Shown here: one piece after another, positions 9,038 through 63,704 of the stretch | Layout of the letters: each line of letters starts with the position of its first letter | Numbering within the stretch: the stretch's first letter is position 1 | NCBI GenBank assembly: GCA_030704615.1 | Contig: CM060734.1 | Coordinates: forward strand, 49,786,001-49,850,000 | Length of the DNA stretch: 64,000 nucleotides | Source: Takakia lepidozioides | Lineage: Eukaryota; Plantae; Bryophyta | Reading direction: 5' to 3' | Notes under the pieces: model-generated | Told to the model about the DNA's origin: nothing | What the model saw: only the letters and a program-made list of their open reading frames with translations | Database searches by the model: none | Position numbers and translations under genes: made by a program

Positions 9038-9768
9038 TGTCGCGCACCTCACTTCGGTAAGCTCCCCTTCAAGTCATAGTTACTCGCTTTGATGCGCGCG
9101 CCTGACTCCCAACATGGCCGCCCGGGCCAACTTGGAGCTTCGGCTGCTCACCGGGACATAACAGTCCCCCTTCGCTTCCTCCTAAACCCTCCACCTATTT
9201 GGGCCTAGGAGAATTCCCTTTGATAGATGGCAGTCCGGAACAGCTCCCCACTCTTTGGTCGCTTTCCGGCTCGCTCGCTTACTCACTAGTTTTTGGTCAC
9301 CAACGGGCTTGCACCGTTCTCGGGGTCACTACTCCCCTTATATATACTTCTGTAGCTGTCCGCGGGGGTTTCACAACCAGCCATGCCATTTTATGGCGAA
9401 CCACCACGAAAACCCTTGACTCCCGGTGATGAGTCGCGGTGAGTCTTGGCCCACTCACCACGGCCCCTATGGACCGTGATGAGTCCCAAGACTCCCCACG
9501 ACTCCCACCACGAGATCTCCGCCCCCATGGTGAGTCCTATGCCACCCCCACTAAGTCCCGCTAAGCTACCACCACCCCTTGTGGAGCCACCCCCACCGCA
9601 ACCCGGTGTGCGGGGCTCCACCTAGTGAGCGCCTCCGCTTCCCTGAGTGCCTTGGGCACTCAAGGGTGCTTCAGCCCCCCCCCATACCTATCGCTGCCGC
9701 TGCCCCCACCACAGGGGCAGCCCCTCGTGTGTCCCAACCCCCTGCCCTCAAGGCAAAGGGCCGCGACA
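9038..9768 (-). repeat. 3' LTR of copy A
   Basis: tgtcgcgcac...ccgcgaca, flanked by the PPT (GGTAGGGGTGTG on the minus strand, 9769-9780). Confidence 0.95.
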
Positions 9769-10662
9769 CACACCCCTACCAACAGGGAGTCGATGTCCTC
9801 ATCGACTTGTCCATTTTGTAGAAACGAACATCCAAGTTGTGGCGTCCCACATCAAGGAGTTTGTTTCCGTCCCATGGCAAAGAACCAAACCCCACACTTG
9901 ACTCTACTCTCCACTAGCTAGTTCGGCCGACTTCCTCCAAGTCCCGGCCAAGGGTGGAGCCTCTCCAGCTCCTCCCAGTGCACTCTTCTTGGCCTACTTC
10001 CAGGCCAAGGAACGATCCTCCCCGAGGATCGAATCGCCTTACTGCAACAACATTGCTTGCGACCGCTCATGATGCCGCTTTTGGCATCACCTTGAGCAAG
10101 GGTTCCCTGAACCCTCTTTGACTAGGAAGATAACCTTGAACCAACCGTGCGCCCCAATCACTACAATTGGGTCCGCCTTGGAATGCTGGCCTGAGGTACG
10201 GGAACACGCCGAAGCCGCACTACGACTTTGTCCCGAGGCTACACGATTATAGTACGTGAACGGAAGCATGTAGCTTCCGCGTTAGCCCGCACTACAAGGC
10301 AACCCCCTCGGTAGCGCAGTTATAGTACGCGCACGCGCCAGGTGCGCACTAGCACGTGAACTCCCAAAGAAGTCGCAAGTTTCCTTGCCCCTTGGATGGG
10401 GGTCACCCGATTTCGGCACTACGCAAACACACGATTAACCCAATTTACCTCTCCCACTTTTATAAGCTAGCATGCATTCTACACACTAGCCAACCATACC
10501 ATGCATCACCATTCCAAATAAAATAGGACGCACAACATTTGGAACCCATTTCCTTTATAACAAATTTTTGTACAATACAAGTTTTTGTAATCGGATTCCT
10601 AAGCTAGCTAAGCCGGGCTAAGCATGCATTTCCTCCCCCACGCTCCAAGGTTGATGTCCCCA

Positions 10663-13600
10663 TCAACGCTTCTTCCGTTTTTGAGGTCGCCCTTCGAAAG
10701 CTGCAACCGCCTCGGATGCGTTTCCCATTTCTGAGGCACGCACCCAAGATGCCTCCACATGATGATAGCCCTTCCATTTGACGAGATACTCAGTTTCTCG
10801 GTTCTTGAACCTCCTCGACTTAAATATTGCCTCCACCTCGTACTCAGGTTCATTTTCATGATCCAACAACATAGGTGGCGGACGCAACACTTGATGCCGA
10901 TTCGGACGCGCTTCATCTTTGAAGTAAGGCTTCAAAAGGGAGACATGGAATACTGGGTGCACCTTGCTGTTTGCCGGCAGCTCCAATTCATACACATCCT
11001 CATTCATAACCTTCCGAATGCGAAAGGGTCCCGCATACGGAGGTACGAACTTCGGACTCACTTCCGGAGGTAGTCGGAAATTCTTGATGTTCAACCAGAC
11101 CTCTGTGCCTGCCTCAAACTTCACTTCCCTCCGCTTCCGATTCGCCTGCCTTTCATACCGTTTCCTAGCTTTGGCAATATTGTACTTTGCGAGCTTCAAC
11201 AAACGCTCGCGTTCTTCCAGTACCGCCGCTACTGCCGGTTCCTCAACGTCCTGGGCGGCCCAACTTGTCGGCACCAGAGGTGCTTTTCCATAGACCAATA
11301 CGAAAGGGGAAACTCCCGTTGCGGAGTGTTCTGTGTTATTATAACAGAACTCTGTCGCGTCTAAGTGTTCCACCCAGTCTGTTTGGTCTGCCGACACGTA
11401 ATTCCGCAAGATCTGCTTCACTACGGAATTCACCCTTTCTGTTTGGCCGTCGGTCGTAGGTCGGAAGGCGGTGCTCATCTTCAGCCTCGTCCCCATCTTC
11501 TTCCAAAGTGCCCTCCAAAATTTACTCGTAAACTTTGGATCGCGGTCCGAGACAATATCCTTCGGGACTCCATGATGTTTTAAGACGTGGGCGAAGTAAA
11601 GTCGCCCTGTCTCCTGCGCCGTTGCCGTCTCCTTGGTGGGGATGAAATGGCCCATTTTACTGAACCTATCCACCACCACCATGATTGCATCGAATCCTTT
11701 TGACAGCGGCATAGCAGTCATGAAATCCATCGAGACGCTTTCCCAAGTCCCCTCTGGAATGGCAAGGGTTGTAACAGCCCGCTTGCTTTTTGTACTCGCT
11801 TCGGTTTTGTTGGCATGTGGTGCATGTCTTGACATACTCCTCTGCCTCCTCCCTCAGTTTGGGCCAGAAATTCTCTTTCTTCAAGAGTGCCGCAGTGCGC
11901 TTGGCTCCGCCGTGGCCGGCAAGCGGGCTATCACGACATTCTCTCAAGAGGCTATCTCTGATCCCTCCCTTCGGCACGTAGAGACGTTTTTGCTTATACC
12001 GGAGCAGTCCATTTTGCAAGTGGAACTGCGATTTACCCCCCATCCTCAAGTCCTGCATCGCGGACTTTGCCAGCTCATCCTTCCGGCAAGCCTTCCGGAT
12101 CTTCCTTTGGAGCGCCGTCTCGCCCTTGTACACCAACAAGAGCTACTGCTTTCTACTTAAAGCATCGGCCACCACGTTGTCTCGTCCCGGTTTGTACTGG
12201 ATATCCACGTCAAACACCGCCAAAGTATCTTGCCACCTAAGTTGTTTTGGGGACAACTTGGGCTGCGTGGCAAAATACTTCACCGTGACATTGTCCGTGA
12301 ACACCTTCACTGGGTTGGAACCAACATAGTGGCTGCTTCAATTCAGCAAAAGCTTGGCCACAAAAGGTGTTCCATGCCCAGACTTTAGATTTACACAGAA
12401 GGTCTGATAGCGGCCCCGCAATCTTGGCGAAATTTCTCACATACTTCCGGTAATAGGAGGCGAGTCCTAGGAAGGATCGCACTCCCGGGACCAAAGTCGG
12501 AGGCTCCCAGTCCAAGATCGCCCTCACCTTTCTGTCATCCATTTTGATCCCATCCTGTGTAATCACATGCCCCAGGAACTCCACTTTTGTGACCCCGAAT
12601 TTGCACTTTGAAGCTTTGGCATACAGCTTCCTTTCTCGCAATTTTTGGAACACCCTTTTCAGGTGCTCCAGGTGCTCCTCCTTTGTTTTCGAGTACACCA
12701 AGATGTCGTCGATGTACACGATCACAAAGTCATCCAACCACTCCTGGAAAAGGCTGTTCATCAGCGTGCTAAATGTCGCTGGTGCATTGGTGAGCCCAAA
12801 AGGCATCACCAAGAACTCATATGAACCATACCTTGTCCTGCACGCGGTCTTCTCCTCATCTCCTTCCGCCACCCGAATTTGGTGTTAGCCGGAGCGCAAG
12901 TCGATCCGGCTGAAATACTTCGCTCCTGCCAACCGATCGAAGAGGTTGTCGATCCTTGGCAAAGGGTACCGGTTTTTGATAGTTACCTTATTCAGAGCCC
13001 TGTAATCGACACACATCCGCAGCGTCCCATCCTTCTTGTCTGCAAATAGCACCGGGGCTCCGTAAGGTGACTTACTCGGCCGGATGTACCCCTTTGACAT
13101 TAGATCCTTGAGCTGAGTCTTCAGCTCGACCAACTCTCTGTGGCTCAACCGGTAGGGCGTCTTGGCAGGCGGTTCCGATCCCGGTATCACCTCAATCTTG
13201 TGGTCAACTCCTCTTCGCGGTGGCAAGCCGCTTGGTAAATCCTCCGGCATCACATCCTGGTATTTCTCCAAAATCCCCTTGATCCAATCTGGGCTCGGCT
13301 CCCCATCGCCTTCTCCTTTCACTTCTCTAATGTAAAGCAAAAACTGGGGCTCGTGTGCCTCCTCCACGGCCCACTCCTTTGCTGACAGAAGGTTTATTCG
13401 CCCTCCCACGGATTTGGGCGTTTCTGACACTCGTAAAACCTCGCCACCATTCCCACATGGCAGCATGACTACTCTCTTGCGGCCATCTATGACCGCTCCG
13501 GATTTGCTCAAAAAGGTCATCCCCAAAATGAGATCCACTCCATCGATCTCGCAGATGGTGAAGTTCTCACGTCCCTCCCAACTCCCCAGTTGAAGAGGAA

Positions 13601-14009
13601 CATCAAACACCAACCTTGTCGCCAACTGTGGTTCTCCTTTGGCAGAACGCACCTCAATAGAGGCCCCCACGTCACTTGTCGGGAGTCCCAACTTTCGCGC
13701 CGCCGCCGGCGTCATGAAGGAGTGCGACGCTCCTGTGTCCACCAACAACGACACGTTAGTTCCGGATATTATCCCATCCACGAACAATAACTGACTCCCT
13801 TTACGCAGGGCGCCAGTTTCCTGATACAACTCACAAGAATAGTTGCCTACCTTGCAAGTCCTGGCGACCACCGCTTCCACCAAGCGACTGATGGTATCTT
13901 CCGACAGCTCCGTGGTTGCCCGAGTCATGTTCAATTGTCGAGGTTTTGTGCACTTCTTGGCCATGTGCCCGGGCTCCCCGCAATTGAAACACACTCCATC
14001 AAAGGTCAC
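10663..14009 (-). pseudogene. pol: pol of copy A: aspartic protease, RT, partial RNase H, integrase, chromodomain
   Basis: [10 protein letters not shown]; YIDDILVYS; H..GH..C..C; SMDF / SDRD / GQTER; GPF; YEVEAI..YLVKWKGY..ASW. There is a stop at 12885, a deletion at 12332 and a frameshift near 11790. Confidence 0.95.
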
Positions 14010-15004
14010 ATTCTGTCCGCCATAAGCCGCTCCACCCGCTTTTCCTTTCGAAGCACCGGGTGCCGCCTTGATGTGTGAAGGCCCTCCCTTCGATTTCCAC
14101 GTGCCATTGTCGCCGCGTGGCCTATCCCACTTCTTTTCCGGTCGGAAGGAGTCACCTTCCCGCCGGGTCTTCTTGTGGTTCAGCTCCGTACGGCCTTGTC
14201 TCTCACCCTAGGGACATCCGAGAAACATTCAGCCCTCTCAATTGCCTCGTTCAAAGTCTTGGGTGGCTTCTCCTCCAACTTTCGTCTGGCCCATGGGGCC
14301 AGTCCCGCCACAAAGTTGAAGACCATTTCTGGTTCTGCCATGTCCGCGACTTCGAGCAACAACACATTGAAAGCCTGGACATACCCCCAAATGTCATCTG
14401 TTTGCTTCAAATTCCTCATCTTGTCCCGGACAAGCCAGGACGCGTTGAGGGGCACAAGCTGTCTCTTCATCAATTCCTTGAACCCACTCCAGTTCAAGGT
14501 TTCCGGGCTTGGGCCTCGGTCGTGAAGGCGTTTCTGCCACCATTGTTGAGCATAGCCCCTCAAATAGGTGGGAGCCACTTCCACCCGATCCTCGTCACTC
14601 AACTTGGCCGCCCGGAAGTACTGCTCTAGCTCCAGGAGCCAGGTGTTGAGTGCCTTCTGATTTCGGACGCCCTCGAAGGTGCCGGGTTCCTTAGGCTTCA
14701 CCTTAAACTTTGCCTTAGCGGGAGTGGCATTAGCCGCCTTCAACACGTCTTTCAACGTCCCGCCAAACTGCGCCAACAACCTTTCCCAAAAGGCTGCCGG
14801 CATGGGAGGCATCTCTTGGTTTGTCGGAGCTCTCAAGGATTCCTCGGGCTCCTCGGATTCCTCCCGCTCTTGAGCGGCCTCGTTTTCGGAAACATGCATC
14901 GCTTCCTCAAACGGCCGCCTCGGTGACACGTCGCCCTCATCGAGCTCACCAGGGTCATCATCTTTTGGGCCGTTCCGCTTTTGCTTCGGCTTGCCCGACC
15001 CCAT
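13950..15004 (-). CDS. gag: gag of copy A (Retrotrans_gag plus CCHC knuckle), frameshifted near 14200
   Basis: [27 protein letters not shown], and [14 protein letters not shown]. Confidence 0.9.
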
Positions 15005-15046
15005 GATGAGGCCAATCCCAAGGACGATCGCGAACTGAACTCTAAG

Positions 15047-15057
15047 CTCTGATACCA
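15047..15057 (-). promoter_or_regulatory. Primer-binding site for tRNA-iMet
   Basis: The minus strand reads TGGTATCAGAG, 2 nt from the 5' LTR end. Confidence 0.9.
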
Positions 15058-15059
15058 AG

Positions 15060-15793
15060 TGTCGCGCACCTCACTTCGGTAAGCTCCCCTTCAAGTCATA
15101 GTTACTCGCTTTGATGCGCGCGCCTGACTCCCAACCTGGCCGCCCGGGCCAACTTGGAGCTTCGGCTGCTCACCGGGACATAACGGTCCCCCTTCGCTTC
15201 CTCCTAAACCCTCCACCTATTTGGGCCTAGGAGAATTCCCTTTGATAGATGGCAGTCCGGAACAGCTCCCCACTCTTTGGTCGTTTTCCGGCTCGCTCGC
15301 TCGCTTACTCACTAGTTTTTGGTCACCAACGGGCTTGCACCGTTCTCGGGGTCACTACTCCCCTTATATATACTTTTGTAGCTGTCCGCGGGGGTTTCAC
15401 AACCAGCCATGCCATTTTATGGCGAACCACCACGAAAACCCTCGACTCCCGGTGATGAGTCGCGGTGAGTCTTGGCCCACTCACCACGGCCCCTATGGAC
15501 CGTGATGAGTCCCAAGACTCCCCACGACTCCCACCACGAGATCTCCGCCCCCATGGTGAGTCCTATGCCACCCCCACTAAGTCCCGCTAAGCTACCACCA
15601 CCCCTTGTGGAGCCACCCCCACCGCAACCCGGTGTGCGGGGCTCCACCTAGTGAGCGCCTCCGCTTCCCTGAGTGCCTTGGGCACTCAAGGGTGCTTCAG
15701 CCCCCCCCATACCTATCGCTGCCGCTGCCCCCACCACAGGGGCAGCCCCTCGTGTGTCCCGACCCCCTGCCCTCAAGGCAAAGGGCCGCGACA
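15060..15793 (-). repeat. 5' LTR of copy A
   Basis: Differs from 9038-9768 by roughly six substitutions and two small indels, counted by eye. Confidence 0.95.
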
Positions 15794-16336
15794 TGGATCA
15801 TCTGTCAGACCCTTGTCCTTCCGGGAAGCGGGCGACACTCTTCTCCTCTCGGGTCCTCCTGGGTGTAAAGTCCAAGGTGCAGGTGAAGAACACAAATATC
15901 CCGGAGACTTTATCGACCTTTCCCAATACTCCTCACCCTCTCTGTTCAGTACGCAGGGTCTGGTCTATCCAACCCACAGGGCAACCGTCGGGGACTCAGC
16001 TACGGCTCCGCTGCACCTGGTTCCGTCTCTTCCTTGTATATCTCCCCAGCTCGAGGGTTGGACAGCCCAAATCCGCAGGAGTCAGGTGACTTAAACTCAT
16101 TTCTCGCTCCTTGCTCATTCTCCTAGTTTCACTTAGTTTGGGGTCTGATATTCATCTGTCGCTCCAGGTAAGAAAATCTGCAAATTATAATCTTCCTGTC
16201 AAACGACGTCTGCATTGGAATGCAGTTTCGAGGTAAATTATTCCTTCGATGCGTTTTCATTCCATCTCGGATGTCGAGTGCTCAAGGGACAATTTTTTGT
16301 GCTTGCCTGTTGTTGCCCCTCCACTCCTCCCGTCGT

Positions 16337-16885
16337 TCAATGGCAAATATCTCCAACATCTTTGTAACCCAACCTTGTAGCCGCTGCCCAAACTTTTGTC
16401 AATCTGGGGAAGTGTTTCGAAAGGTAGTTCACAGCGTGACCCTGAACTACTGGCACAATATTCTGCACCAAAGAGGCAAAAAAGAGCCCTCGAGCCATTT
16501 CCTTCCTGTGCATGAAATCTTTCCAACGGACAAAAGGCTGACAAGAAAAAAAAAACGGACTCCAAACACATGAGGACTCCCTCGGATGTTGTGGCGCCTC
16601 GTCAATCCAAGCCCGCGGGAATCCACTGTTCTTCTGCAAGACATTCCAATAAGGCTTCAATGGTACATTTCAAAACAATTTCTCCACTTTCGTTTGCAGT
16701 TTGTTTTGCTGTCCCAAACTAACTCCGTAATTTTTATACAAGCGAGTATGGAGCCGCATAACTTCTTGAATGCGCCTCCCGACAAGGTGCGTCCACTAAC
16801 CTCCACTTGGCAGCCGACGTTCATCTTTTCGTGATCTCGAACTCTTCGATATATTGTCTACTCTTGGTCCTTTATGATAGTCCAT
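16337..16885 (-). pseudogene. Decayed hypothetical protein gene
   Basis: One frame with two stops: MDYHKG..*WTHLVGRRIQEVMRLHTRLY..QNKLQTKVEKLF*NVPLKPYWNVL..GFPRAWIDEAP.. Confidence 0.45.
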
Positions 16886-17559
16886 TGTTGGGACACTTAT
16901 GTCTCCGAAAACGTAGAGGTCACTCTGAAACTAAGAAACACTACATCGTGTTGTTTCTGACGGCGGGAACACTTAAATTTTGCAGGATGGCATCGTCCAT
17001 CAACCTTCATTTGCCACATCGGGGAAGAGGAAACGGATGTATGAGGTACGTTCCATGGGGCACGTGAGTGGGCTAGAGTAGTAGGAGTGAGTAGTTGGAA
17101 GGAGGAGATTAGGAGGCTAGACAGTTCTCTGGGGGTAGTACTATGAGTGTGAGCTTGTATTAGTTTGGATTGGACGCGGGGTTTTTTTGAGGGGATGTCC
17201 TCAAGGTAGTGGTCTAATAGCCAGCAGATTTCAGTAACGAAATCTTGTCTGGGTGGCAGGATGTGATATGCATGTGGGTTAGGAGTAGAGTATTTATGCC
17301 AGAGCCACGCTAGCCGATCATTGGGAATGAGGCCAATGTATCAGCCGGTGTGGGCGTAGATTTTTGACCATTGAAGGCCCTGACAGATTAAGGGGGAGTC
17401 GTGGGCAATGTCTTTATCAGGGTTACATTCGGTAGTGTTGATGTGAATGTGAGGAATGGCGAGCGGATAGGGAATGTTGCGGGCATCTGTGAGTTGTGCT
17501 TGAGAGACATGTTGTTGGTGAGTGTGTGTTAGGTAGTTAATGTTGGTACGTTTATGGAA

Positions 17560-17756
17560 TGCAGTAAGGAGGGAGAGATTGTGGATGGGGTCACAATCAT
17601 CGTGTGAACCAAAGAGGTCGTCCTCAATCTGCCAAGTGTTGTCATCTGAGGAAAAACCAACCCATTTGCAAAGGTAGTACGTATCTTGATATGTAGCGTC
17701 AATCGCGTCAATTGATGTTTGGGTTCTGACCCCGAGAATGTTTTCCAGAATGAAGG
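17560..17756 (-). CDS. Chromodomain within the LINE polyprotein, downstream of RT
   Basis: FILENILGVR..YYLCKWVGFSSDDNTWQIEDDL in ORF 17341-18210. Confidence 0.8.
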
Positions 17757-20700
17757 CGGTGGAGTTGCTAGGATCGGCAGTCGGAGAACACAACGGGGGG
17801 GAGGGGGGGATTATGTCTACCTCAGTGTTGTAAGAAGTAGGGGAGAGGGTGGGGGAGGTTTGAGTGTGCGAATGAAGGGGTGGTGGACTGGCAGGGTCAT
17901 GACTACGGGTTTGGGTATGAGGTGAGGAGTAGGAGGGGGAGGGGGCTGACGGGGCGCAGGGGAGAGTGTCAATGGTATCAGTATCCTTGGCATGAGATGA
18001 TTTAAGCATTTGTAGAATAGAGGGAGCAGGGGCGGTACGAAAAGTGGGGAGTAGATCCTGTGGACTGTGGGGAAAAAGAAGACATGGTAGGTCACATTCA
18101 AGGGTACATGAGGCCGATGGGTGGCAAAATAGGGTACGGAGGTGATTAAGAAATCTGCAGGTTTTGGCAGTGGCTCGTGTGTGTTTAAGGGTTAATTCTA
18201 TGGGGGTCAAGAGGCGGTTGCGGTGGCGGTGGTGAGCTGGGTGAGGGTCGTGATGTGTCGTCCTTTGAAATATTTGATGATAAGTATCTTTTGGCAGGGA
18301 AACTTGCGTTCAAATTGGGAGATGAAGGGCTAGTATGTCAGGCCTGTTCGAGGGGAGATATGGATTTGGGGTAATCAGAGAGATCGGTTTGCACACTGGT
18401 TTTCATCTGGCGGAATATGAATAGGGAGCGGGCAGTAGGGGAATGGAGACAAGATTGTAAATGGAGGAAAGGTAGTGAGTGAAGTCTGTTATACTTAGTG
18501 GCAAGGTGTTTAAGTAGCCCACAGTGGATGAGACCTAGACGACCCGGGTCTTTGAGGGCTTCGAGTAATTGGGAGCCAAGAGTGCGCGAGTATGATATTA
18601 TTAAAGGACTAGTACCGATGCCAAAGCTGTCCGTGGGGAGTTGAGTGAAAGCATTGGGAGTGCTAGTTGGGAGACCACAAATGCGCTTAGTGAGTTGGAT
18701 AATTTGTCTGTCGATTTGGATGATGTTAGGGAGGGAGAAGGGAGCCGCATGGAAGGAGTATTGGACCTATGGTTTTAGAATGGATTCTATTAGAGAGAGT
18801 TTGGGCCTGATGGCTATGGGGGCTTTGAGGAGAGCCAGGCTTTTATTAGTTAGTTTGGTGAGTGTAGCGATTTTTTGTATGTGCCATGTGAGCGAGGGGA
18901 CAAGTTGAATACCTAAGTATGTGTAGGGTTCATTAGGCCCCAGGAAGGGAAATGGTTTGTTCTGGTATTGGATGTATAGTTTGCAGTGTGACGCAATAGA
19001 AGATTTGGTGAGCTTACTGCGGTGGGTAGCCGCAGTGACGGCGCATTTATGAAGACTTAGTTCCATTCCAGACCGTTGGTTAAAGCGTGATAGTTTTTCA
19101 ACTTGCCGGTTGAGGTGTTGGGGTTTGTGCGCAAGGATGGCAAGCTCATCTGCGTAAGCGGCAGCAGAAATTTTGTTTGAGGAAGTTTTGTATTGGTATC
19201 CAAGTTTGCCGCGTGCAATCCATCTGAGCAAGGGTTCAAGGAAGATGATAAAGAGATAAGGACTAAGGGTATCGCCTTGGATAGTGCCTCATAGAATCGG
19301 GATGGGAGGGGTGGAACCATAATATGAGCCTATATATTCCGTGGAGCTGTTAGTGTAAATATTGCCGATGAGTTGTATGGCGTCTGATGGATAGCCTAGG
19401 TCCGTCATAATGGCGAGTAGACGTGGGTGGTCTAAGGAGCCGAAAGCATTTTTGAAGTCGATATATAGGAGATATATATCTTGTTTTGTGAGTTTGGCGT
19501 CCTCTAGGGCGGATAACACATATTGTATTTGTCTAGTAGTGCTACGTGTGGCGTGGAAGCCTTCTTGTGGGTCACTAAGAATACGGCGGTGTTCACCATA
19601 ATTGGACAACATCTTGGTAAGGGTGTTGGTAAATAGTTTATAGATAGTGTTAGCGAGAGCAATGGGTCTGTAGTTGCTAATATCCGTAGGGTCGCCTTTC
19701 TTGAAGAGGAGAATGGTGCGGCTATGCTTCCATGTATGCGGGATCCAGCGGAGTTGGTAGCAAAGTTTAAAGAATTTGAAGAAGAGGAGGTGAAGTACAG
19801 GGTCGAGAGCTTGTAGAATAGCATTTGGAATCAAATCGGGGCCAGGGGCTTTGGCTTTGGGAAGAGCTTTGAGGCAGGATTCAAAGATATCAAGAGTGAA
19901 GGCGTCATGGATGAGGTCTGATGGAGAACCACGGTTCTCCTGTGAAAAGCCGTCTAAGTCGTGCCAGGGGTAGTGGCGGACTTTACACACGCAGTCAGGG
20001 GTGTGTAAGGTATGGTGCAGGCAGTGCGTAGTGGTGGGAGTGTAGGAGGATGAGGCTTGAATCCATTTCATTTTTTATGTCATTAGGGGTGGTGAGTAGT
20101 TGGCCTGATCTATATTTGAGGCAATCAATGGGTGGGTTTAGAGCAGGGTTGTGGTCATGAAGTAATTGGCCAAAGGATGAAACAAATCTTTTGTGATCAG
20201 CCGTGGCTTTTTCTTTAGTAATAATGTAGGCGGCTTTTTTAGCGTCTCTCCCCAGCTTGGAGAGGGCAGCAATCCAGTTAGGAAGATTGGAGGGGTTGTT
20301 GGGAGGGGGCATGATCGGGTTGCAGACAGATAGGGAGTTTAGGCATGAGATACGAGGATCGGAGCTCCAGTCTTTGTGTAGTGGGAGGGTGGAAGAGTTA
20401 GGAATAACGGTGAGAGCTCTGCGGATAGTGTGATAGGTGTTTAGGTGGGAGGTACAGGCCCGCTTTTGTGAATGGGTAAGATATCCCCCGTTTTGTTTAG
20501 AGCGGGAGGTTTGGGGCAGGTCCGGGGGAGCGGCACACGTGGCGAGAACGCTTTTGGTCATTTCTAGTAAGATGGAAGAGAGGGTGAGCTCTGCTTCGAG
20601 CCAGGTATTATCGGGTTCCTGTGATAGGTTCGTATCTGAGAGGATATGGGAGAGGTTTTGTGTTAGGATAGAGGCAATAGGTTGGAAGTGGTTTTGGAAG

Positions 20701-22297
20701 GCTGTGATGTTATGTTTGGGTAATGGAGATAAGATCTTGGGTTGGGGAGAGGGGGTAAGGATGGAAGGGAGGGGGCGGAAGGGAACAATGGAAGGGGGAA
20801 GAGAGATTGATACTGGGTAGTGGTCGGCTATCAATGTGAATATGGCTGTGGAGATAGGACGGGATCTCAGTGCTGGTTTTGAGATAGAAACCATCAAGGA
20901 GGCTGAGAGAGTAGTGGAGACCACCTTGCCTGGAGTAGTGGTGATCTGCGGGTATGTAGCTAAAGTGGTGTTGTTGAGTGAACTTGGCCCAATCATGATC
21001 GGAAGGGAATGGGGGTTGGTGAGAACCTTTACAGGAGTGTCCAAGGAGAGCAATATCTCTGTTGAAGTCGCCAGCAAGAATGTAGTGGTGATGCTGCTGA
21101 TCAGGGTGGGTAATCATATTGGAAATTGCAAGCTTAATATCTGGGATTAGTTGGAGGTCATCAGTGTGGGAGGGCATGTATAGGTGAATGATGGTAATTG
21201 GGTGAAGAGCAAACAAATAAAGTTGGATAATTTGGAGATGGGAGCGAAGAGGGATGGGGACGTTCACCTTGGTGGTGGTGCTGGGAGAGTGATGGGTACG
21301 TAGGATGCCAATGGCAACGCCACCCCGGGTGGGGCAGTATGGGGGCCGAGCACCGCCTAAGGCATTGCGGAGCCGACAAAGGGTTGCCATACAGGAAGTA
21401 ATATGTCGGGAGTAGCTTATTTATGTATGAACTGTTAGGGCGGTTGGTTTGTAGTTTAGTTTCTTGTAGTAGAATAATGTGCGGGGAGATGGAGTCTGTG
21501 AGAAGGTGTATGAGGCTTTGTATACTAGAGGCCATAGAGCCCACGTTCCACGTGATGATGTTAAGAGAGTTGGTACTTAGATTGTAGGCGGAGGAGGAGG
21601 GGTCGGGAGAGGGGGGTGTAGGTGCATTTGAGTGAGTAGGCAGGGGTGGGAGGGGTTGGGGGGGTGGAGGCAGGGGGAGAGCCGTGAATCCAGGGAGAGG
21701 GGTTATTGCCTTTAGGGTGGCAGAGAGGATATCATTGGATAAAAATGAGAACTTATTAGAGAGGGCTGGCAAGTCGTGAGTCGGGGAGGTAAGTGAGGCA
21801 AGATGGTCGCCTAGGATTGTATGGACCACTCCGGGTTTGGATTGTAGGAGTTGAAGCGAGGAGTGTAATTCAGAGAGATGGTGTGGAGGGGCTAGGTAGT
21901 TGTTGGGGAGCGGGGGCAGTTTATGTATGTTGCGTAACAGAGAACGGGTCTGGGAAAGGGAGTGAGATTCAAAGTAGATATCACATGTGTCTAGTAGCGG
22001 GGAAATAAGAATGATGAGGGCAAAGATGATGTGTTGGGTGGGAGACACCTTGAGTCTGTGTGTGGCATGGGTGAGAGCTGGGAGAAGGCAGGCAGGGAGG
22101 CCAAAGGTGGCGATTTGGTGTGTAAGGGAAGTATGATGTGTGGGGTTGGGGGGTTGAGGTTTTGGGAGGAAAGGGGTGAAGTGGTCAGAGAGATGTCGGT
22201 ATGGGTGTGTAAGGGAGATGGTATTTTGTTGGAAATATAAAGCATATCTATCTTGTGAGTCAGAGGATAGTTGAAAAATGATATCATCTATAGAAGA

Positions 22298-22351
22298 GGG
22301 TCCTGGATTTGGGTGTATGTCACCACATCTGAGGAGGATGAGGTCAATACA
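22298..22351 (-). other. 2A-like (StopGo) motif CIDLILLRCGDIHPNPGP upstream of the APE domain
   Basis: Matches GD(V/I)xxNPGP, with H in place of the consensus E. Confidence 0.7.
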
Positions 22352-25300
22352 GGTGTCTGTGTAAGCGGTGTCGGTTGAGGGGGGATGATGGTAGTAATGT
22401 TTGGATTTTAGGGGGTATAAATGGCGGGTACCATGTGGATGAACGGCTAGGGAGAGGGGTTCAGAGTGTACTAGGTAAGGGATGTTAGGAAAGTGGGGGT
22501 GAGAGGGGTGTGACCAGATTGTGTGGATAGAGGGGTTGGGGGTTGGGGAGGTGGAACTAGTGGGCGATGTGTGTACGTGGAGGTCAATCATGGCGTTCTG
22601 AAGCGGGTGGGTTGGAGTGGGGGAGGGCCAAAGAGTGTTGTATAATAGAGTCGAGGGGTGGGAAATGTAAGATTTGTTTAGGGGTAGGGTCGAGATATAT
22701 GTAGTGTGGGGTTGTGGGGAAGATAATATCGAGTTATAGATAGTGAAGAAAGTGTTCGAGGGTAGTATCACAGTGTGGGCATTGGGGGGTGGGGTAGGGG
22801 ATAGGGCCAAGGAACAAAAGTTTTGGGATACTAGTGGAAAAAGAGTGGATGAGAAGTGGAGGTATGACGGGTGTATTTCCAAGGCCATATGATACGTCAT
22901 GGTGGTATGTTTCTTGATTGTATGAGTGGAGCGAGGGACTGTGGGAATATAGAGTAAATATGTGGTATCTATTGATGGGTGTGTAGGATTTGCCTAGAGG
23001 TGATACCATGGTATTAGTATATAGACGGTATTCGAGTGATAGTTATTAGAACCTGATTTGGGGTGTGTGGATTTTTGCATGGCGACATAATACGTCACCG
23101 TTTGAGGATTCTTGAGTATATAAATGGCACGGAAGTGTCTACTGTGGGAGTAAAAATTGAGCATATACCCGGGGGGTCAGGGTTATGATGGGCGCTCATT
23201 GAACCAAATATTGTATCTAGATGATGTAAATGAACGGTGTTTTGGGGTATGGTATTTGAGGGATGTTTGTGAGTAGTGTATACAAACAATATATATGGGA
23301 AGTGTATACGAGTGGTTAGCTGGAGTGTGGTCATAATGCACTGCATAATATAGGATGCAGTATGTGCGAGGGATGCACCATAGTAGTGTAAGATTGGAGT
23401 AGTGGTCTGGGGAGGTGAAGCAGGATATTGTATAAAAGCAGTGAATGTATGGGATATACTGTACACTTGGGGTATGATATAGGGTCTGGAGTATATACTG
23501 AAGTATTGAAGTGGTGTGAATGTATTTTGTGTGAAGTGGTGTAACAGTATCGCATAGGGAGAGTGATGGCGTGTCAGTAAAAAGAAGTTGGGAAGTGTAT
23601 GCAGGTGTGTCATCATATTGGTAATATAGTATGAGAATGTGTTGTGTGGGAGTGGTGTGAGGAAGTAGTGTGAGGGAGTGGTGTGAGGGAGCGGTGTGAG
23701 GGAGTGGTATGGTGATATGATGCTGGCTTGGATCCAGCAGTAAGTAAACCCCAGATGGGTATATAAAAAAATAGTTATCAAAGAAAATGAATTGGGGGTA
23801 ACAACCTAGCAACTTCATACTTAAAAAACAGCCAAGCTGTGTAACGATAATAAAAGCATAGTTAGGATGTGTTGTATAGCGGACGCCTGAAGCAAATGGG
23901 GGAGCTGGTGGTGTCGGTGTTGAGGTGCCCATCGGGGTGTCGGCGCATATGTGGTCAAAGGCAGGTGACTTTACTAAACATCTGAGGTCCAGTATGGCAT
24001 CCTTGTTATATGCTATTTCTTCATAGCTACCGAGTGGGGTCGAGAGCGTCAATGCTGTTGGTGGTGTGCGAGTACATGGGGGTATGCAGATAAGCCTGCA
24101 ACCTGCATCAAGAAGTGGGTGAATAAGATGATACAGTGGTGTTATGAGATCAAAGGCAATGTTATGTGAGTGCATCCAGTGAGAGTGGTGGTGTGGGAAT
24201 AGTACAATGGCGGGATTTATGTGACAAACATAGCTGCATATAGTAGTGCGAATCGGGTCTATACTATCCTGGGGGAGAACAACCGGGTATGTAAGAGAGT
24301 GAATTCCATGGACCAAAATAGAGAAAGCTTGATGGGTATCAGCGGTGTGGGTAGCGGGAGGCAGTATCAGTAAAGAACATGTAGGCAAACAGCATCAGCA
24401 GTGATAGGAAGAGCACATGAGCAAAATACCGTGCGGTTTCATAATTGACCAAAGGGATAGGGTGGAGCGAGTGCACCTGGCTGAAGCATCCGGGTTGTGG
24501 AGAGACAAGTGTGCTGGCTGATATGGCCAACGAACATACTTAGAGATGGCCAGACCAATGGGAGATCTGAAATGCAGCTTAGCAGCAGTAAAATAGGGAG
24601 CGGAGCTTTGTAAAGATAAATCCAACATATGAAAACATGGTTTATTTGATATAGTACATGTCCTTGAGACAAAGGGCATACAAGAAAAGAGAAAATTTGA
24701 TACAACTGCACTAGATACATGGCTTGATAAGGGCTTGTTGGGTGGTGCGGCAAAAGTCATAATAGTTTTCAAACTCTCGGCAGCAAAGAGCAATGTGCTA
24801 TGTGATATGGGTTCCACAGAGGCAAGTTGCCAAACATTATAAGTAGAGGGCAGAGTATACGATAGAGGCGCAATAGAGGTAGTTTTCAAGAGCTTGCTTT
24901 CAGGGAGCATGGTGCGGAAGGGTTCATGATACACATTCAGCATTAAGCTTGTGCCAAAGTTGGGCAGAGTATAAGTCACGAGCTTGTAAGAGCAAGAGAT
25001 AACAATTCTATAGAATGACACCAATGAGGAGAGTAAGATGGAACAAGGGCACCTTTGAGGGCTGTTGTATAACCAAAGTGCGTACAGTGGTTGGGCAGGT
25101 TGGGGGCGCTCCACAGTCACTCCCGAACATGGATGCTTGTTCATCTTCAGTAGCCAGTAGTACCGAGTAATGGTGAGCTGGGTTATGTAGTAGAATGTGT
25201 TATGATCAAAGGCAGATTGCACGTTGAATGAATTGGCTGCGTGGTTGAGGGGCCATGTGTTATAAATGGTGTCTCCCACAAGGGAGCGTTGTTTTAGAGA

Positions 25301-25379
25301 GAGAGCTTCTCGAGTGTGGCGGCAGATTTTGATAACAGAGTTGCCACTCAGATCGTTGTGTTGTGCAGACTTCATAGTA

Positions 25380-26690
25380 ATATTCGCCACAATTCCAGCT
25401 TTAATGATGTCAGGGTATGTGGAGCAAATGCACCTGAGAGTGGTGTGGTGGTGTTGATTTCGGAGGAGTGGGGAATTGGTCGGATGGCAGAGTACGCTGT
25501 GGGCGAGGCTCTGGCCTATAGCCGGTTGGGCACACAGAATTGCAGCCGACCAGCGCCAACATTGCTCGTGGATATCCGAAGCTTCTATACCACAATCATG
25601 TCGATCATAGCCTGCAATTATCGCACTCCAGGGAGCTACATCTGGTTCAGTCATATTGTAAGACACTTGACAAGCCTCGTTCATGTTCCCACATTTTGAA
25701 TACATGTCCAAAAGGGGAGTCTCCAGAATGATATCTGGTCTAATTCCAGCTTCAATGATGTCAGAGTGGACCTCCTGGCCCTTTCCCAGGGCTGCCAAAC
25801 TGGAACGCGCATTGAGAACCAAGATGAACGGGACATTGTTGAGCATTTGCACACTCCCATATTTGGCAAACATGTCAGCCAGGGCAGTCTCCAGACTGAT
25901 GTTCGGTGTCTTTTGAGCTAGGATGACACCGTCATGGACCTTTTTCGCCCTTTCTGAGGGTTGCAGGGCAGGTACATGTCAGTCCACAGAGTGGTGTGGG
26001 TGGATTCAGCTGCACATCTGGAGACAAGAGTGTTGCCCGTTGCTGCAACACCGGGGTGACACTGTTGGCAGCTGCAGCTTGACATGCATCCTTCATGCTC
26101 TCACATTTGGCATACATATCTGCAGGGGCAGTCTCCGGTCTGTTGAACACTCCCTTTTCATCATCAATGCACCTACATTTTACATACATGTCCATGAGGG
26201 TACTATTCAGAGTGACCTTTGGTACAATTCTAGCTTTGATAATGTCGCCATGCTCTATACCCTTTTCTAGAGCTGCCATGCTTGCACATGCACTGTAAAT
26301 GCACATAAACGTGCTGTGGTCGGGTTTCACCCCTTCCCCCAACATTTGATCATAGGTCTCCAAAGCTTCCATATCACGTCCCTGTTGCGCATACCCTGTA
26401 AGGGTCACATTCCAAGACACGACATCCCGTTCAGCCGTAGTGTCCAACACTCCCTGTGCCTCCTCGATGCATCCACAATTTGCATACGTGACCACTAGGG
26501 TATAGTTCATAATAACAGTCGGTACAATTCCAGCTCTGACGTGGTCGCTATTGATGATGTCAACATGAACAACCTTGCGCTTTACCAGGGCTGCCAGGCT
26601 TGCACAAGCATTGCAAATGCACACACATGCGATGTGGTTGGGCTTCAATCCTTCCACCATCATTTGATCATAGGTTTCCCGACATCTGTG
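25380..26690 (-). pseudogene. PLS-class pentatricopeptide repeat (PPR) pseudogene fragments
   Basis: LLDMYSKCGNMNEA, DVVSWNVTLTGYAQQG, GVKPDHSTFMCIYSACASMAALEKG; rearranged and degenerate. Confidence 0.85.
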
Positions 26691-27974
26691 ACAACTCCAA
26701 CTTTGACATGGCCAATCAGCCTGGCCTGCTGCTTCTGCTGTGGAGGCAGGGGTTGAGAAGGAAGTACCTCGAGCTTGAGATTGTGGCAGGTAGACACAGA
26801 CGCTGGCACAGTGTTGGCGAGAGTGCATTCATACTGTCTGGTGCAAGAAGCCACATAGTGCTTTGTAGAAGGCTTCACTGAGTCGTAAAAAAGGGGTGTC
26901 GGGCACAAAGTAGTGAGCACATAGCGATGTGAATGGTATGCTTGCGCGAGTATATCTGTCGCGTCGTAGCTCATTGCTTGATAAAAAGGGGGCAGGTGGT
27001 TGAGCTTCCAACTGTGAATGATGGGGTCCATTTCTGAGTGCCATCCATCAGCAGTGCAGGCCCGCAAACACTTTGTCTCAAGGGAGTTGGCAAGCTGACA
27101 ACCACGATGTGTGGAAGTCAGCCAGAAAATAATGCATAGAAAGACAACAATGTAATTTTGTGTCATGCCAGATGCCCACATCCTTGCTCTCCAAAAACTC
27201 ATCAAGAACGCCATATGCAGGAGCGCAAAAGTTAGGGAGCTGTAGCAGAAGAGATTTTTGTTCGGATTGAACTGGAAAAATACCAAAATCACCGGCGCGG
27301 CTTCTTCACCAAAGCAGACCAAGGTCGTCGGGCCTAGTACTTCGCCACCACGATCTAGGGAAGCCTGATAGTACTTTGTTCGTGAGTGAAGTTGCACATG
27401 AGCAAGCAAGCAGCAAGGGCACAAGATAATTTCCAAAAAGAGCTAGTACAATCAAATCGTCCTGAAAACCTGAAAGAAATGGCTTGAAAGAAGCGCCTAG
27501 GAGAGATGAGGGTCAACATAAGGGAATGAAGGGGTTGAGCACAACAGCTAGAGCACTGCATCAAAGGAAGCATCGAGTCGGACTATGGCGGCGGTCGTAG
27601 CTACACGCGCTAGCAGGTATTAAATAAGGAGCATCGCTAAAGAGGGTGAGAAAAAAACACGATAAAGAGGAAATAAAATAGCAGAACCCTAGATAGACAA
27701 TTTAGCGAAAAAGTCAGCTAAGAGTTGAGCGGGAAAGCGGAGCTCCGCGCTCCCGCCGGCCATTCCATCGTCATCACCTTGTGGTTATATACTGTTATAG
27801 TCCCTGGATATCAATTCCATTGTTTTGTTAAAGCCGAAATGTCCTACAGCCGGAAGATTATGACATGTTTGAAAAATTCGAAGTCGTGTAGGTCCTGGAG
27901 GTACATAGAGAAGTCCCTTGAAATAAAGTCATAAAATGCTGATACGACTGAAAAATAACAGACGTAAAAGTCGG

Positions 27975-30038: not shown

Positions 30039-31040
30039 TTAGCTTCTCGTTTCTGCAGTCAATTGAGCATGAGTGTCGTTGAACTTGTACATAGTCCCCA
30101 GGGTGGAAATGCCAAACACCTGGCCAATATCCCCTCCGCGTATAGTGACATACCTCAATGTGTCTCGGTGTTGGGCAATAGCAAGATTCTCAAAAACCAT
30201 AGGCATGACTCTCTTAAACAACTCTGCCCGCTGGGCACATGCTTGTGTCCACATATCCGGATCATCAAGGTTGAGGACTACAACGGCCTCCCTGCGAATA
30301 GATGCAGGCAAATCCGGCTCTCGGCCAAAGAGAAGGAAATATGGTGAGAAGGAGGCAAGTGATGCTTGCTTGCTGAACCTGTAGCCCATGGCTAACCAAT
30401 GTACCTGAAGATCCCAATCTCCTAGGTGTCCCTTTTGCAAGCCATACTTGCGCAAACCCCTCTTCATTGTCTGAACCACTCTCTCTGCCAAGCCATCGGC
30501 CTCAGGATGATCCCGACAAGTGGTACGGTGGTCTATCAAGGCTTTATCACACAAAGCCTGAAACTCCCCCAAAAACTCTCTCCCTTGGTCCGTGAGTACC
30601 TCAGCTGGAGCACCGAATCGGCTAAGCACAGGATCCAGGAATGCATACGCAGCCCCCTCACTAGCCTTGTCAGGCAATGGAACCAACTCAATCCACTTGG
30701 AGAAGTGCTCTACCATCACCAACACATATCTGTGGTGACACATCGTCAGTGGCAAAGACCGTGCAAAGTCAAGACTCCACCTGTAGCCCAATCCCATGAT
30801 GGGTAAATGATGCAACTGTGGTGTAGGGGCGTTGAATGAAGCATGCACCCTGTCACACACCAAGCATCTAGCCACGAATTGTTGCACCTCTGTGTGCATA
30901 CCACGCCACCAATACTGCCCCTGCAGTAAACTATGAGTGTGTCGCATTCCAAAATGCCCCAACTCCTTATGGGCATGCCGTACTAACCGTGCACGCTGTG
31001 TTGGGTGAGGCACGATCCTCACCCGACCATCCTCCCACAC
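30039..31040 (-). CDS. Integrase (HHCC zinc finger plus DDE core)
   Basis: HKELGHFG..CLVC; WSLDF; EHFSKW; VLTDQGREF; HPEADGLAER; SPYFLLFGR. Confidence 0.92.
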   Translation of the reverse strand: MWEDGRVRIVPHPTQRARLVRHAHKELGHFGMRHTHSLLQGQYWWRGMHTEVQQFVARCLVCDRVHASFNAPTPQLHHLPIMGLGYRWSLDFARSLPLTMCHHRYVLVMVEHFSKWIELVPLPDKASEGAAYAFLDPVLSRFGAPAEVLTDQGREFLGEFQALCDKALIDHRTTCRDHPEADGLAERVVQTMKRGLRKYGLQKGHLGDWDLQVHWLAMGYRFSKQASLASFSPYFLLFGREPDLPASIRREAVVVLNLDDPDMWTQACAQRAELFKRVMPMVFENLAIAQHRDTLRYVTIRGGDIGQVFGISTLGTMYKFNDTHAQLTAETRS

Positions 31041-31718
31041 TCAAAGTAGGTGTATCCCCTCCCACTTGAACCTCTTGGCTCGTTGCAGGATCCAATCCCT
31101 CTCCTTGGCTGTCACACTAGCTGCCGTGTCTCCAGTGCGGAGGTAGTCCACCACAATCGAATCCTCATGTATATCTCTGGCACCACCTGGCTCATCACTA
31201 GCCTCAACTCCGTCTACAGTCATCCCTATTGTAGGTCCAACCTGACTTCCCGATGCCAAGATACACAAAAAAGTAGATGCATGTCATCTCGGCACCATCT
31301 CCTCGTCCGTCTCACCATGCCACCGAGCTCCAGTGTCATCCTGCTGGCTCGTGCATGGATTGCGACTCAATCCATCCGCATCCCTATTGACCAAACCCGG
31401 TTGATGCACAACCTGAACATGTCTCTCATGCTCATCCACCGTAACACGAGAGGCAAAGCAATTCCTGTAAGCCTCAGGAACCGCCGTATATGTCGTCTCT
31501 CTCCTCTAGTGACAATGGGTCCAATGTCAGGCTCCCAATTGCCCTTCGTAACTGCAACCTTAAGTCCAGCAGACTTAGAGGTAGAGGACGCGTCCCGTGG
31601 TTGCTATGCCGCAACCTCTTGAGCAGTACTCCCTACTTGCTCAGTCAATGACAAGGCCTCATCCTGCCCCATCATCTCATCCTTGAGGACCTCCTCAACC
31701 TAAGAAGAATCCCCAACC

Positions 31719-32981
31719 TCATCCATCACAGCCGCCTTGGCTGCCAACTCCCTCTAAACCTCGAGCACCTCCCACGTGTGCCATGGGATGTCTACACCCC
31801 GTGGTCTTCACCGGCTCGCCCCCACTCACTGCCTGTATCGTCTCGATAGGTAGAGAGACCGTCAAGGGAAGTGCACTCCGCACTCTACATTGCTCAGCCA
31901 TAGCCAACCTGATAATCCAGGTCAAGCAATTGAGATCCATTGCTTGCCCCAACACCTGACGACTTGATGCCTCTGAAAGAGAAGGCACCGCCGTGGTCCC
32001 AGTGGAAAAACCCATAGCCCGCTCTCGTTCGTCGGCATTAGGCTCCACTAACAGCTGCAACTGAGCATCCCACAGGAGGCTAGGTCCACTATCCCGGAAA
32101 GCATGCGATCCTGGGAAGCTGAGTAGTGTAGGTAGTGCTGCTCGTGGTTGACCCACCTTGTTGACCATTGCCAAAGGCAAACGGTCATCGTGTCTCACAT
32201 ACTGAGACTGCCTCCATGTGTCCAAAATGCTATCAACTGTGAGGTGTGCTGGCCGCTGCACCCCATCTAATGCATGCTTGAGCAGTGCAGGTGACATCAA
32301 GTTAGTCCACCATAACCGTGGACGATGAGCCCGTGACCCCACTACAGCTGCATCCAGCAACACTGCTGACCCAAGCCACGACCGGACTTGATGCACACTG
32401 GCCATCACCCTGGCCCGAGAATCGCCCATCAGTGGCACATTCTCCAAGATGTATGCTGAAGATATAGCCTGATGAAGCTGTAAGTGGCGCAAAACCCGCA
32501 CCATCTCCCAAAACAGACCCGACCTCGAGTTTCGCAATCCATTGCCATGCCCGGCTGATGAATGCCCTTGGCAGGGCCAACCTGCCACTACCAAATTAAT
32601 GGAGCCAATCCGCTCCAAATCCTGCGCCTCCAACAAGGAGATGTCTGCTGGCAAGGCCTGCTGATATCCACGAACCATAGACACCGGCAACAACTCAGGG
32701 TACTGCTGCACCAACTGAGTAACATGGCGTAGGGAGACGCATCGTGCAGTCTCATCCCTCTCCACATACAGGTAACGTCGTACTCGTACACCTGCCTGTA
32801 GAACAGCAGCCAACCCGGTGCTGATCCCGCCAAACAAGTCCAGAAGGCAAATGCCTTCATCCGGACACTGCCACACGATCGGTGTGGTGTCCAATGGTGA
32901 CAACTGAGGTGGTTTTGGTGTAATCCCCACACTGTCATCCTCTCCTGATGGTACAAAAGCCTCTACCCAGGCTTGTTGCAC
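31719..32981 (-). CDS. C5-cytosine DNA methyltransferase domain (DNMT3/DRM-like catalytic core) within the retroelement polyprotein
   Basis: Motif I LDLFGGI, motif IV AGWPCQGHS, motif VI ILENVP, motif VIII HRPRLWWTN, motif IX ERERAMGF, motif X VLGQAMD, all in one uninterrupted ORF. Confidence 0.92.
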   Translation of the reverse strand: MQQAWVEAFVPSGEDDSVGITPKPPQLSPLDTTPIVWQCPDEGICLLDLFGGISTGLAAVLQAGVRVRRYLYVERDETARCVSLRHVTQLVQQYPELLPVSMVRGYQQALPADISLLEAQDLERIGSINLVVAGWPCQGHSSAGHGNGLRNSRSGLFWEMVRVLRHLQLHQAISSAYILENVPLMGDSRARVMASVHQVRSWLGSAVLLDAAVVGSRAHRPRLWWTNLMSPALLKHALDGVQRPAHLTVDSILDTWRQSQYVRHDDRLPLAMVNKVGQPRAALPTLLSFPGSHAFRDSGPSLLWDAQLQLLVEPNADERERAMGFSTGTTAVPSLSEASSRQVLGQAMDLNCLTWIIRLAMAEQCRVRSALPLTVSLPIETIQAVSGGEPVKTTGCRHPMAHVGGARGLEGVGSQGGCDG

Positions 32982-33199
32982 ACGTCAATCAGCAACCCGC
33001 TGCAAATCCTTGCTCGAGCCCCACAATGGAGTGTGAGCAACCATGGCAGACAACTCTGCCATACCATACATGTCATCCTGCTCTCCCGGAGGTGACACAT
33101 CCTCTAAATGAGCGTTGCCCTCAAGCAACTCTCCAGGCCAACTCACTACAGCTGTGAATGCTGCCAGTGTTGGCATCTTGCCTCGCTGGGCAACCGTAA

Positions 33200-39214: not shown

Positions 39215-39702
39215 AACTCTTCATTGCAACTACCCTAGGAAAGTTGATATCCGTGGTAGCATACCAAAGATGTCAGCTGGCATGTCTTCTTGAAGCAGGA
39301 TACGAATCAGTGTTTTTTATTTTTTATTATTATTTTTTCTGAAAAAAATAGCAAAAAATAGCCATATATTGTGTTCATTCATTGAAATTTGGAAAGGGTC
39401 ATCCTCATACATACTTTCACCCATTGATATCCTCCACATTGCACAAATTCATCCATTTCTTATTTTTTATTTGGAGAAGTTTGGCGATTAATTCAGCATT
39501 TGCGACAAAATAATTTATTTACGTATTCTTTGTTTTGTTGTGGATTCGAATTTGTTTTGTATTTTGGATCAACAAATTTAGATTTTTAGAAGGTTGTTGA
39601 TCTATGCGGACATCAAAGTCCTCCACCGGCAACTTTACTACCAACTGCTACAATCTGATATCAAGTACGTATGTGTCTCCGTTCGATGGTTACAATAGAA
39701 TG
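39215..39702 (+). repeat. Orphan third copy, in inverted orientation, of the KP4 upstream region
   Basis: 39520-39700 is the reverse complement of about 42280-42470 and 43490-43670; 39240-39310 matches the reverse complement of 42868-42935. No coding sequence follows. Confidence 0.75.
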
Positions 39703-63526: not shown

Positions 63527-63704
63527 TGATGCTGCCGTGCCAGGAGTTACGAAAGATCCTGCAGATTGTCTCAGAGGAGCACTGAGCTGTCAAGTTAAAT
63601 AAGCACAGTGTGAAAACAGTTAGAATAAAACTAGTTATTTGTATTTAACACTTGGATTTAGGTCAAGTGTTAAATCAGGTGTCAAGTTTAGTTTGACACC
63701 TGGT

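Follow-up and report, generated by a model that had tools for sequence, protein, structure and literature searches.

A 64,000-nucleotide stretch of the Takakia lepidozioides genome (assembly GCA_030704615.1, contig CM060734.1, positions 49,786,001 to 49,850,000; hereafter the window) raises the question of whether a long interspersed nuclear element (LINE) can own a chromodomain and use it to choose its insertion sites. A preliminary description of the letters alone had placed a Dualen/RandI-like LINE with a chromodomain at 17341..22900 and had assigned RNase H and a restriction-like endonuclease (RLE) to a missing 3′ part. The reading favored here, with moderate confidence, is that of a dead Dualen-clade LINE whose second open reading frame (ORF2) runs from a 2A-like motif through an apurinic-like endonuclease (APE) and a reverse transcriptase (RT) to a chromodomain that is native to it and a PCIF1-like methyltransferase-fold domain; this chromodomain likely binds methyl-lysine on histone H3 and would tether insertion to silenced chromatin. 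The features concerned are as follows:

~17040..22345, minus strand: decayed ORF2 region of a Dualen-clade LINE (relatives aligned by tblastn and tblastx, strand skew, junction)
22298..22324, minus strand: 2A-like ribosome-skipping motif GDIHPNPGP, upstream of APE and at the same position in four relatives
20815..21577, minus strand: APE endonuclease (Pfam and relatives), split by a frameshift near 21341
18341..20074, minus strand: RT with thumb (RVT_1, identity, tree), with stops at 19289-91 and 18767-9
18082..18132, minus strand: Cys-rich linker motif LFCHP..C...C..PC (translations, visual comparison, unscored)
17566..17754, minus strand: chromodomain with a longer β1-β2 hairpin (Pfam, PDB sequence matches, AlphaFold2 and Foldseek, family profile)
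17040..17565, minus strand: conserved linker with ECNPD and RLxWLW, leading into the N-terminal portion of a PCIF1/CAPAM-like adenine-methyltransferase domain, truncated
15794..17040, no strand assigned: unrelated repeat abutting and truncating the LINE (skew, depth, loose contig ends, Pfam)

The identity of the chromodomain is supported at the levels of sequence and predicted fold. The PF00385 scan that the preliminary description had proposed returned Chromo above the cut-off of 25.1 bits, both for the ORF at 17344-18309 (26.5 bits, E = 6e-6) and for an 82-residue segment at 17545-17790 (30 bits). All 45 PDB sequences matching at E ≤ 1 belong to chromodomain proteins, with an Entamoeba HP1 domain (2e-5), CBX1 (4e-4), and Chp1 at the top. 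An AlphaFold2 model based on a 35-row alignment shows a three-stranded sheet and a helix, with predicted local distance difference test values of 83–97 per block over residues 11–80. When this model was submitted to Foldseek, all matches listed were chromodomains, none of which attained an E-value of 0.001.

A related pair of Ty3 chromovirus copies occupies the same window (9038-15793 and ~44890-50993, minus strand), with near-identical long terminal repeats (LTRs; 98–99% in the first copy). The first copy encodes gag, protease, RT, and an integrase that includes SH3 and a chromodomain. At a distance of 6 kb there is a chromovirus that has a chromodomain of its own, and the chromodomain ORF of the LINE is not in the RT frame, as might be expected of a nested chromovirus fragment or of a chance motif in a decayed LINE. 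However, the two chromodomains have only 6 of 19 residues in common and no DNA similarity, Pfam finds neither integrase nor SH3 at the flanks of the LINE chromodomain, and the frame change fits single-base indels that are absent from other copies. The features of a chromovirus, namely an integrase, LTRs, and a Ty3-type RT, are indeed missing from the LINE.

Contigs of other copies (DNA runs, four runs from one sample, whose summed depth is not taken as copy number) also connect the chromodomain to its surroundings. One aligns over 17039-17735 (704 bases, 113 differences, 9 gaps) and a second over 17519-17868 (49 differences), the two bridging the chromodomain to both flanks. In some other contigs, parts of the region are missing or the sequence departs from it at 17588; these count against a native domain, but are as expected for deleted or divergent copies.

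An exhaustive HMMER search with 17095-17790 as the query, the stop being read as X, gave 93 matches, of which 18 are host proteins with several chromodomains and 75 are element-like fragments; unlike this search, a word-index search with the chromodomain segment gave no match, and none of the 8 loci from a metagenome scan extended past the start of the chromodomain block. The best match, P0122 (40% identity, E = 2e-37), is an independent element that starts inside the chromodomain and carries Chromo (E = 4e-9) and PCIF1_WW within one ORF. The Chromo call of P0157 (E = 4e-5) is below the cut-off. In P0215 and P0248, thumb, chromodomain block, PCIF1_WW, and RNase H follow one another in a single ORF, collinear with the window, and the P0215 block itself matches Pfam Chromo with an E-value of 0.023. 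A block profile was built from 14 relatives that have no Pfam Chromo call and had originally been retrieved by the window query, mostly via its downstream part; with the window sequence excluded from it, the profile gave E-values of 9e-9 for the window, 1e-4 for P0157, and 2e-3 for P0122, but only 0.09 for the best host chromodomain. Among RT-bearing sister proteins, all seven that extend 420 residues or more beyond a YADD-type motif contain the block. This count leaves aside two proteins missed by the motif filter, namely P0240, which has the block at E = 5e-29, and P0030, in which only the first strand matches (E = 0.05) before the frame apparently changes.

This collinearity in independent elements makes a nested fragment or a chance motif very improbable, and the chromodomain is very probably native to a Dualen-clade LINE. 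The preliminary claim that the LINE carries a chromodomain is thus upheld by the bridging contigs, P0122, P0215, P0248, and the seven sister proteins. The nested chromovirus fragment, which the preliminary description had itself named as one of two observations that would undo its claim, was considered and ruled out by all of these but the last.

The Dualen/RandI affinity that had been suggested is borne out by RT phylogeny and by the nucleases of the relatives. The RT search returned 220 proteins, and among the best 120 of 220, which were listed, the window RT is up to 60% identical to sister proteins with the full query covered. In a quick IQ-TREE phylogeny of 72 rows (49 others being dropped for coverage or span), where references were recognized by domain content and not by Repbase names, the sister group of the window RT consists of 34 metagenomic rows (Shimodaira–Hasegawa-like approximate likelihood ratio test, SH-aLRT, 99). 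Both belong to a 52-row clade (SH-aLRT 100), whose members from Haematococcus and Gonium have Josephin, APE, PHD, and RNase H domains. An RT phylogeny was among the checks that the preliminary description had proposed, and in this quick tree the RT groups with Dualen-type RTs.

Members of the sister clusters P0226, P0228, and P0232 contain RNase H, CCHC-RHN, RPD, and KxxKY, a pattern that we take to mark RLE and that also fits R2-like P0075, and P0088. A CCHC finger and RLE are likewise recognized by motif in P0068 and P0218, and RNase H occurs in P0215, P0248, P0137, and P0228. The sister-clade link to RLE is pieced together from overlapping fragments, not from one full-length sister ORF. A CCHC finger and RLE occur neither in the window copy nor in the rest of the window; because it is the sister proteins that supply RNase H, CCHC, and RLE, both nucleases are credited to the sister clade and not to the window copy. 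The expected location of RNase H and RLE in the missing 3′ part agrees with relatives that carry these domains. APE together with RLE is the defining pair of the rare Dualen type (PMC5029228, PMC4640811). Collectively, Dualen membership of the family is well supported by these sequence comparisons.

The near-complete relative P0218 (3855 residues) has a C48 protease, a weak Josephin match, APE, RT, PCIF1_WW, RNase H, and RLE, with no Chromo call, and P0064 also begins with a cysteine protease. Such an N-terminal protease (Josephin or C48) is a frequent but variable part of Dualens. Pfam detected no N-terminal cysteine protease on the window ORFs within 21164-25978, i.e., the decayed 5′ part, or on the ORFs of the sister element L002. 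L002 has an ORF1 of 1022 residues ahead of ORF2 (L002:2-3067, plus strand), for which neither the window nor Pfam or PDB gave a match and whose likeness to RRM is an impression only. This two-ORF layout would differ from that of single-ORF Dualens such as P0218. An ESM Atlas search gave no usable match.

Whether the chromodomain could read methyl-lysine depends on its aromatic cage. The window domain has the aromatic residues F (17754), W (17664), and F (17655), i.e., F13, W43, and F46 of the segment 17545-17790, at positions that we take to form the cage; the W and the second F were aligned to HP1-type domains through PDB matches, and the first F by eye and by the family alignment. P0157 has all three of these aromatics and P0122 has two. 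Since these three elements keep an HP1-like loop with its aromatics, the cage is suggested to be under selection in that branch.

Several observations weigh against a reader function for the family at large. Within alignment A1 (24 rows covering the loop, where a one-residue gap makes the register uncertain), Phe or Tyr occupies cage position 3 in only three rows, those of the window, P0122, and P0157. The residue following the conserved Trp is Gln in the window and Glu in HP1-type domains, and only 2 of the 75 element-like matches receive a Pfam Chromo call. When the degenerate forms were aligned alone (A2), hhalign gave a probability of 1.5% against chromodomains, no chromodomain appeared among the PDB sequence matches, and Foldseek placed a chromodomain at rank 3 only (probability 0.96, E = 0.22). 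The AlphaFold model of the degenerate set has chromo or chromoshadow domains as its best matches among 48,161 chains, with CHD1 at Z 5.3 (root mean square deviation 3.0 over 57 residues) and Chp1 at Z 5.2 (2.6 over 55 residues); as a model-based fold match this is modest, and it too is counted on the unfavorable side. The block profile had no match in algal Dualens, and in P0045, P0060, P0069, and P0218 a chromo-like block is suggested by eye only. Haematococcus proteins have a PHD finger in the corresponding interval.

Chromodomains such as those of GEN1 and CHD4 serve as DNA/RNA-binding or structural modules. A similar role could apply here, the native fold being a DNA/RNA-binding or structural part of ORF2 and the intact cage retained ancestry. 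The fold and its C, W, and W residues persist (of the 24 A1 rows, 23 retain Trp-43 and 22 retain Trp-53), whereas 21 of these rows have lost cage position 3. In addition, the sister clade is abundant in the degenerate form, and the top fold matches include chains of GEN1 and CHD proteins. The HP1-like loop and aromatics of the window, P0122, and P0157 speak against such a role, which we consider rather unlikely. From the A1 counts and the fold matches of the degenerate set, the chromodomain fold seems to be family-wide, with the complete cage confined to a sub-lineage.

For this sub-lineage, methyl-lysine reading would be part of the insertion cycle. By the properties of its clade, the element would use APE and RLE to nick the target and would copy itself there through target-primed reverse transcription. 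By analogy with chromoviruses, the cage-intact chromodomain might dock the ORF2-RNA particle on nucleosomes methylated at H3K9 (or H3K27), and new copies would consequently end up among repeats, with little damage to the host. The chromodomain of the chromovirus MAGGY targets H3K9me regions (10.1101/2021.11.30.470311). Weak support comes from the position of the window copy among LTR elements and from the contribution of Dualens to Chlamydomonas centromeres (PMC8226300), but a repeat-rich neighborhood also arises through selection alone. An active Chlamydomonas Dualen produces long target duplications (PMC9977147). Judged mainly by analogy, methyl-histone-directed targeting in the cage-intact sub-lineage stands at even chances.

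Downstream of the chromodomain, the preliminary description had seen LINE-like sequence resuming. The sequence indeed belongs to the LINE but is not generic, as it comprises the conserved linker and the N-terminus of a PCIF1-like domain. Linker and methyltransferase-like region are 40% identical to P0122, and the motif THSYYSSPLTCP at 17092-17057, beyond a one-base frameshift, is identical in that element. PF12237 was found in 13 of the 93 matches, four of them above the cut-off, and also above the cut-off in P0068, P0218, and P0248. All four PDB matches of the family profile are CAPAM (6irx, E = 0.006; 6irv, 0.31) or CDYL chromodomains, and a further family profile run gave CAPAM 6irx with an E-value of 0.002. 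Moreover, 38 stored proteins match a local methyltransferase profile, including the Haematococcus protein P0060 (E = 2e-13). A PCIF1-like domain thus appears, by sequence, to be common to Dualens from algae to the window lineage.

This conservation, with matches extending from the sister clade to algal Dualens, would suit an active module in which chromodomain and methyltransferase-like domain place N6-methyladenine (6mA) on the RNA or DNA of the element and thereby evade silencing; combinations of a chromodomain with a DAM domain are known from LTR elements (10.64898/2026.05.21.726589). However, the Asn-Pro-Pro triplet is absent from the presumed catalytic strand in all 23 aligned rows, which have HP, FP, YP, PP, NT, NV, or IP instead; the register of this strand to the CAPAM motif is presumed, and the window copy is truncated before the site. 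Streptophytes are stated to be without abundant 6mA, and the PCIF1-like domains of DIRS elements were judged inactive by Iyer et al. (PMC4738411). An active module is accordingly improbable. Because none of the 23 rows has the triplet, the domain is predicted to be inactive and is probably PCIF1-like without being an active PCIF1/CAPAM member; it may serve as a nucleic-acid-binding module. More tentatively, and at somewhat less than even odds, a chromatin module that has been overlooked may lie between the RT and RNase H of Dualens, in which a reader (chromodomain here, PHD in Haematococcus) precedes the PCIF1-like domain and an intact HP1-type chromodomain would direct target-primed insertion to H3K9- or H3K27-methylated nucleosomes.

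The window LINE is a dead, broken copy. Homology to relatives begins at ~22345, with a weak further match at 22921-22856 (tblastn and tblastx), and plus-strand GC skew is 0.3–0.7 per kb across the block (~22345-17040), in which the ORFs are broken. The strand skew continues upstream of the homology to ~25300, and the 5′ end is ill-defined. At the other end, the element that had been placed at 17341..22900 is present in this span but continues past 17341 to ~17040, where its 3′ end is cut. In-frame stops occur at 19289-91, 18767-9, and 17341-3, and frameshifts near 21341, 20834, 20065, 18324, 18220, and 17092. Contigs of other copies are without the stop at 17341-3 and have single-base indels relative to the window at 18324, 18220, and 17092; since they lack these breaks, the latter reflect decay of the window copy. 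At the junction, skew flips at 17000, summed depth rises, and loose contig ends cluster at 17040-17057, and therefore the LINE is truncated by the unrelated repeat at 15794-17040. One of the loose ends extends the methyltransferase-like frame of the LINE, as seen by eye. The repeat, which sits between an LTR element and the LINE, is well covered by other copies in the DNA runs; none of its four scanned ORFs has a Pfam match, and no second copy lies within the 64-kb window, nor was the 3′ remainder of the LINE found elsewhere in it.

The upstream parts conform to the same element. ORFs and Pfam matches place APE, RT, and chromodomain in order on the minus strand, as the preliminary description had stated, and the motifs it quoted are present in the translations. 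For RVT_1, ORFs 19292-20074 (E = 4e-13) and 18770-19288 (E = 4e-14) are both above the cut-off. Exo_endo_phos_2 on ORF 20713-21420 (E = 4e-4) is below it, and the APE region is 37–47% identical to relatives that have APE calls. The Cys-rich linker is also found by eye between thumb and chromodomain in sister proteins. The position of the 2A-like motif is common to P0013, P0031, L002, and L007, three of which have the canonical E. The window motif has H in place of E at this key site, and the 2A peptide Crack-15_BF with the same exchange has very low activity (PMC3708506); by sequence, the window motif is likely weak or inactive.

Decayed pentatricopeptide repeat (PPR) gene fragments lie directly upstream of the LINE (24400-26830, minus strand) and are partly covered by contigs of two runs guessed to be RNA, sparse contigs that are given no weight here; their pattern is presumably of the PLS type. 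Together with the neighboring Ty3 elements, these remnants fit a host that is probably a non-seed land plant. In Haematococcus, a PPR domain is fused to ORF2 proteins (PMC13405545), and thus the fragments are possibly linked to the 5′ part of the LINE. Elsewhere in the window, an LTR-type element (30042-32984, minus strand) has a C5 cytosine methyltransferase ORF (31722-32984) directly upstream of an integrase ORF (30042-31040). The former matches PF00145 (E = 2e-11, 44.4 bits, cut-off 22) and has DLFGG, GWPCQ, and ENV; no RT matching that of the window chromovirus was found in this element. It resembles Gypsy-Dnmt3 of Klebsormidium (PMC5890265), and its occurrence in a land plant may be of note. 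Long inverted-repeat arms (39236-39667 and 42315-42939) around an AT-rich stretch of ~3.6 kb possibly represent a DNA transposon or foldback element. Finally, long ORFs at 60354-63589 (minus strand) that end in a SWIM zinc finger are suggestive of a Mutator-like (MULE-type) transposase remnant.

Dualen/RandI non-LTR retrotransposons were reportedly described by Kojima and Fujiwara in 2005. The window family resembles them in that its RT belongs to one clade with Haematococcus and Gonium proteins, and APE, RT, RNase H, CCHC, and RLE all occur in its sister clade; the 2A-like peptides have already been reported for Haematococcus Dualens (PMC13405545). It differs from described Dualens by a chromodomain between RT and RNase H and by the PCIF1-like domain, which the available parts of Dualen descriptions do not mention (PMC5029228, PMC4640811, PMC9977147, PMC8226300). 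Ahead of APE, no cysteine protease was detected in the window or in L002, and L002 has the separate 1022-residue ORF1; the host of the window copy is a land plant. In the literature searched, which did not include the founding Dualen paper or Repbase, no chromodomain is described in Dualen or another LINE and no PCIF1-like domain in Dualen, although a supplementary table of 823 fusions of transposable elements with chromatin domains (10.1101/2021.11.30.470311) could contain a LINE-Chromo case. The Dualen-clade LINE family with both domains between RT and RNase H is new in this sense, and Repbase entries may already note both.

The PCIF1-like domain recalls the adenine-methyltransferase-like domains, PCIF1/CAPAM-like or DAM, that DIRS elements and LTR elements such as EpiLTRs likewise have as part of a polyprotein (PMC4738411; 10.64898/2026.05.21.726589); DAM domains occur in DIRS and LTR elements, some with chromodomains (10.64898/2026.05.21.726589). 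In contrast to these cases, the window domain is in a LINE clade, matches PF12237/CAPAM, and belongs to a family without the Asn-Pro-Pro triplet. The available main text of the latter source contains neither 'Dualen' nor 'PCIF1'. A LINE clade is thereby added to the retroelements with adenine-methyltransferase-like modules, which are otherwise reported for DIRS and LTR elements.

This family bears on the question of how LINEs become concentrated in centromeres and heterochromatin. The poplar centromeric L1 element Celine is also a plant LINE for which chromatin targeting is at issue, but its authors looked for a chromodomain-like domain and stated that it has none (PMC11288735). In this respect, the window LINE resembles the chromoviruses of the Ty3/gypsy group, such as MAGGY and CRM, with which it shares a retrotransposon-encoded chromodomain beside the integration machinery and, as proposed here, the working principle. 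Unlike chromoviruses, it would use target-primed reverse transcription without integrase or LTR, its chromodomain is internal and not C-terminal, and this domain is nearer to its own family block than to that of the neighboring chromovirus. Cage-intact and cage-degenerate forms of one LINE family make reader-directed target-primed insertion directly testable. If the proposed targeting is true, a LINE has converged on the chromovirus strategy, which would offer a handle on how LINEs home to heterochromatin or centromeres.

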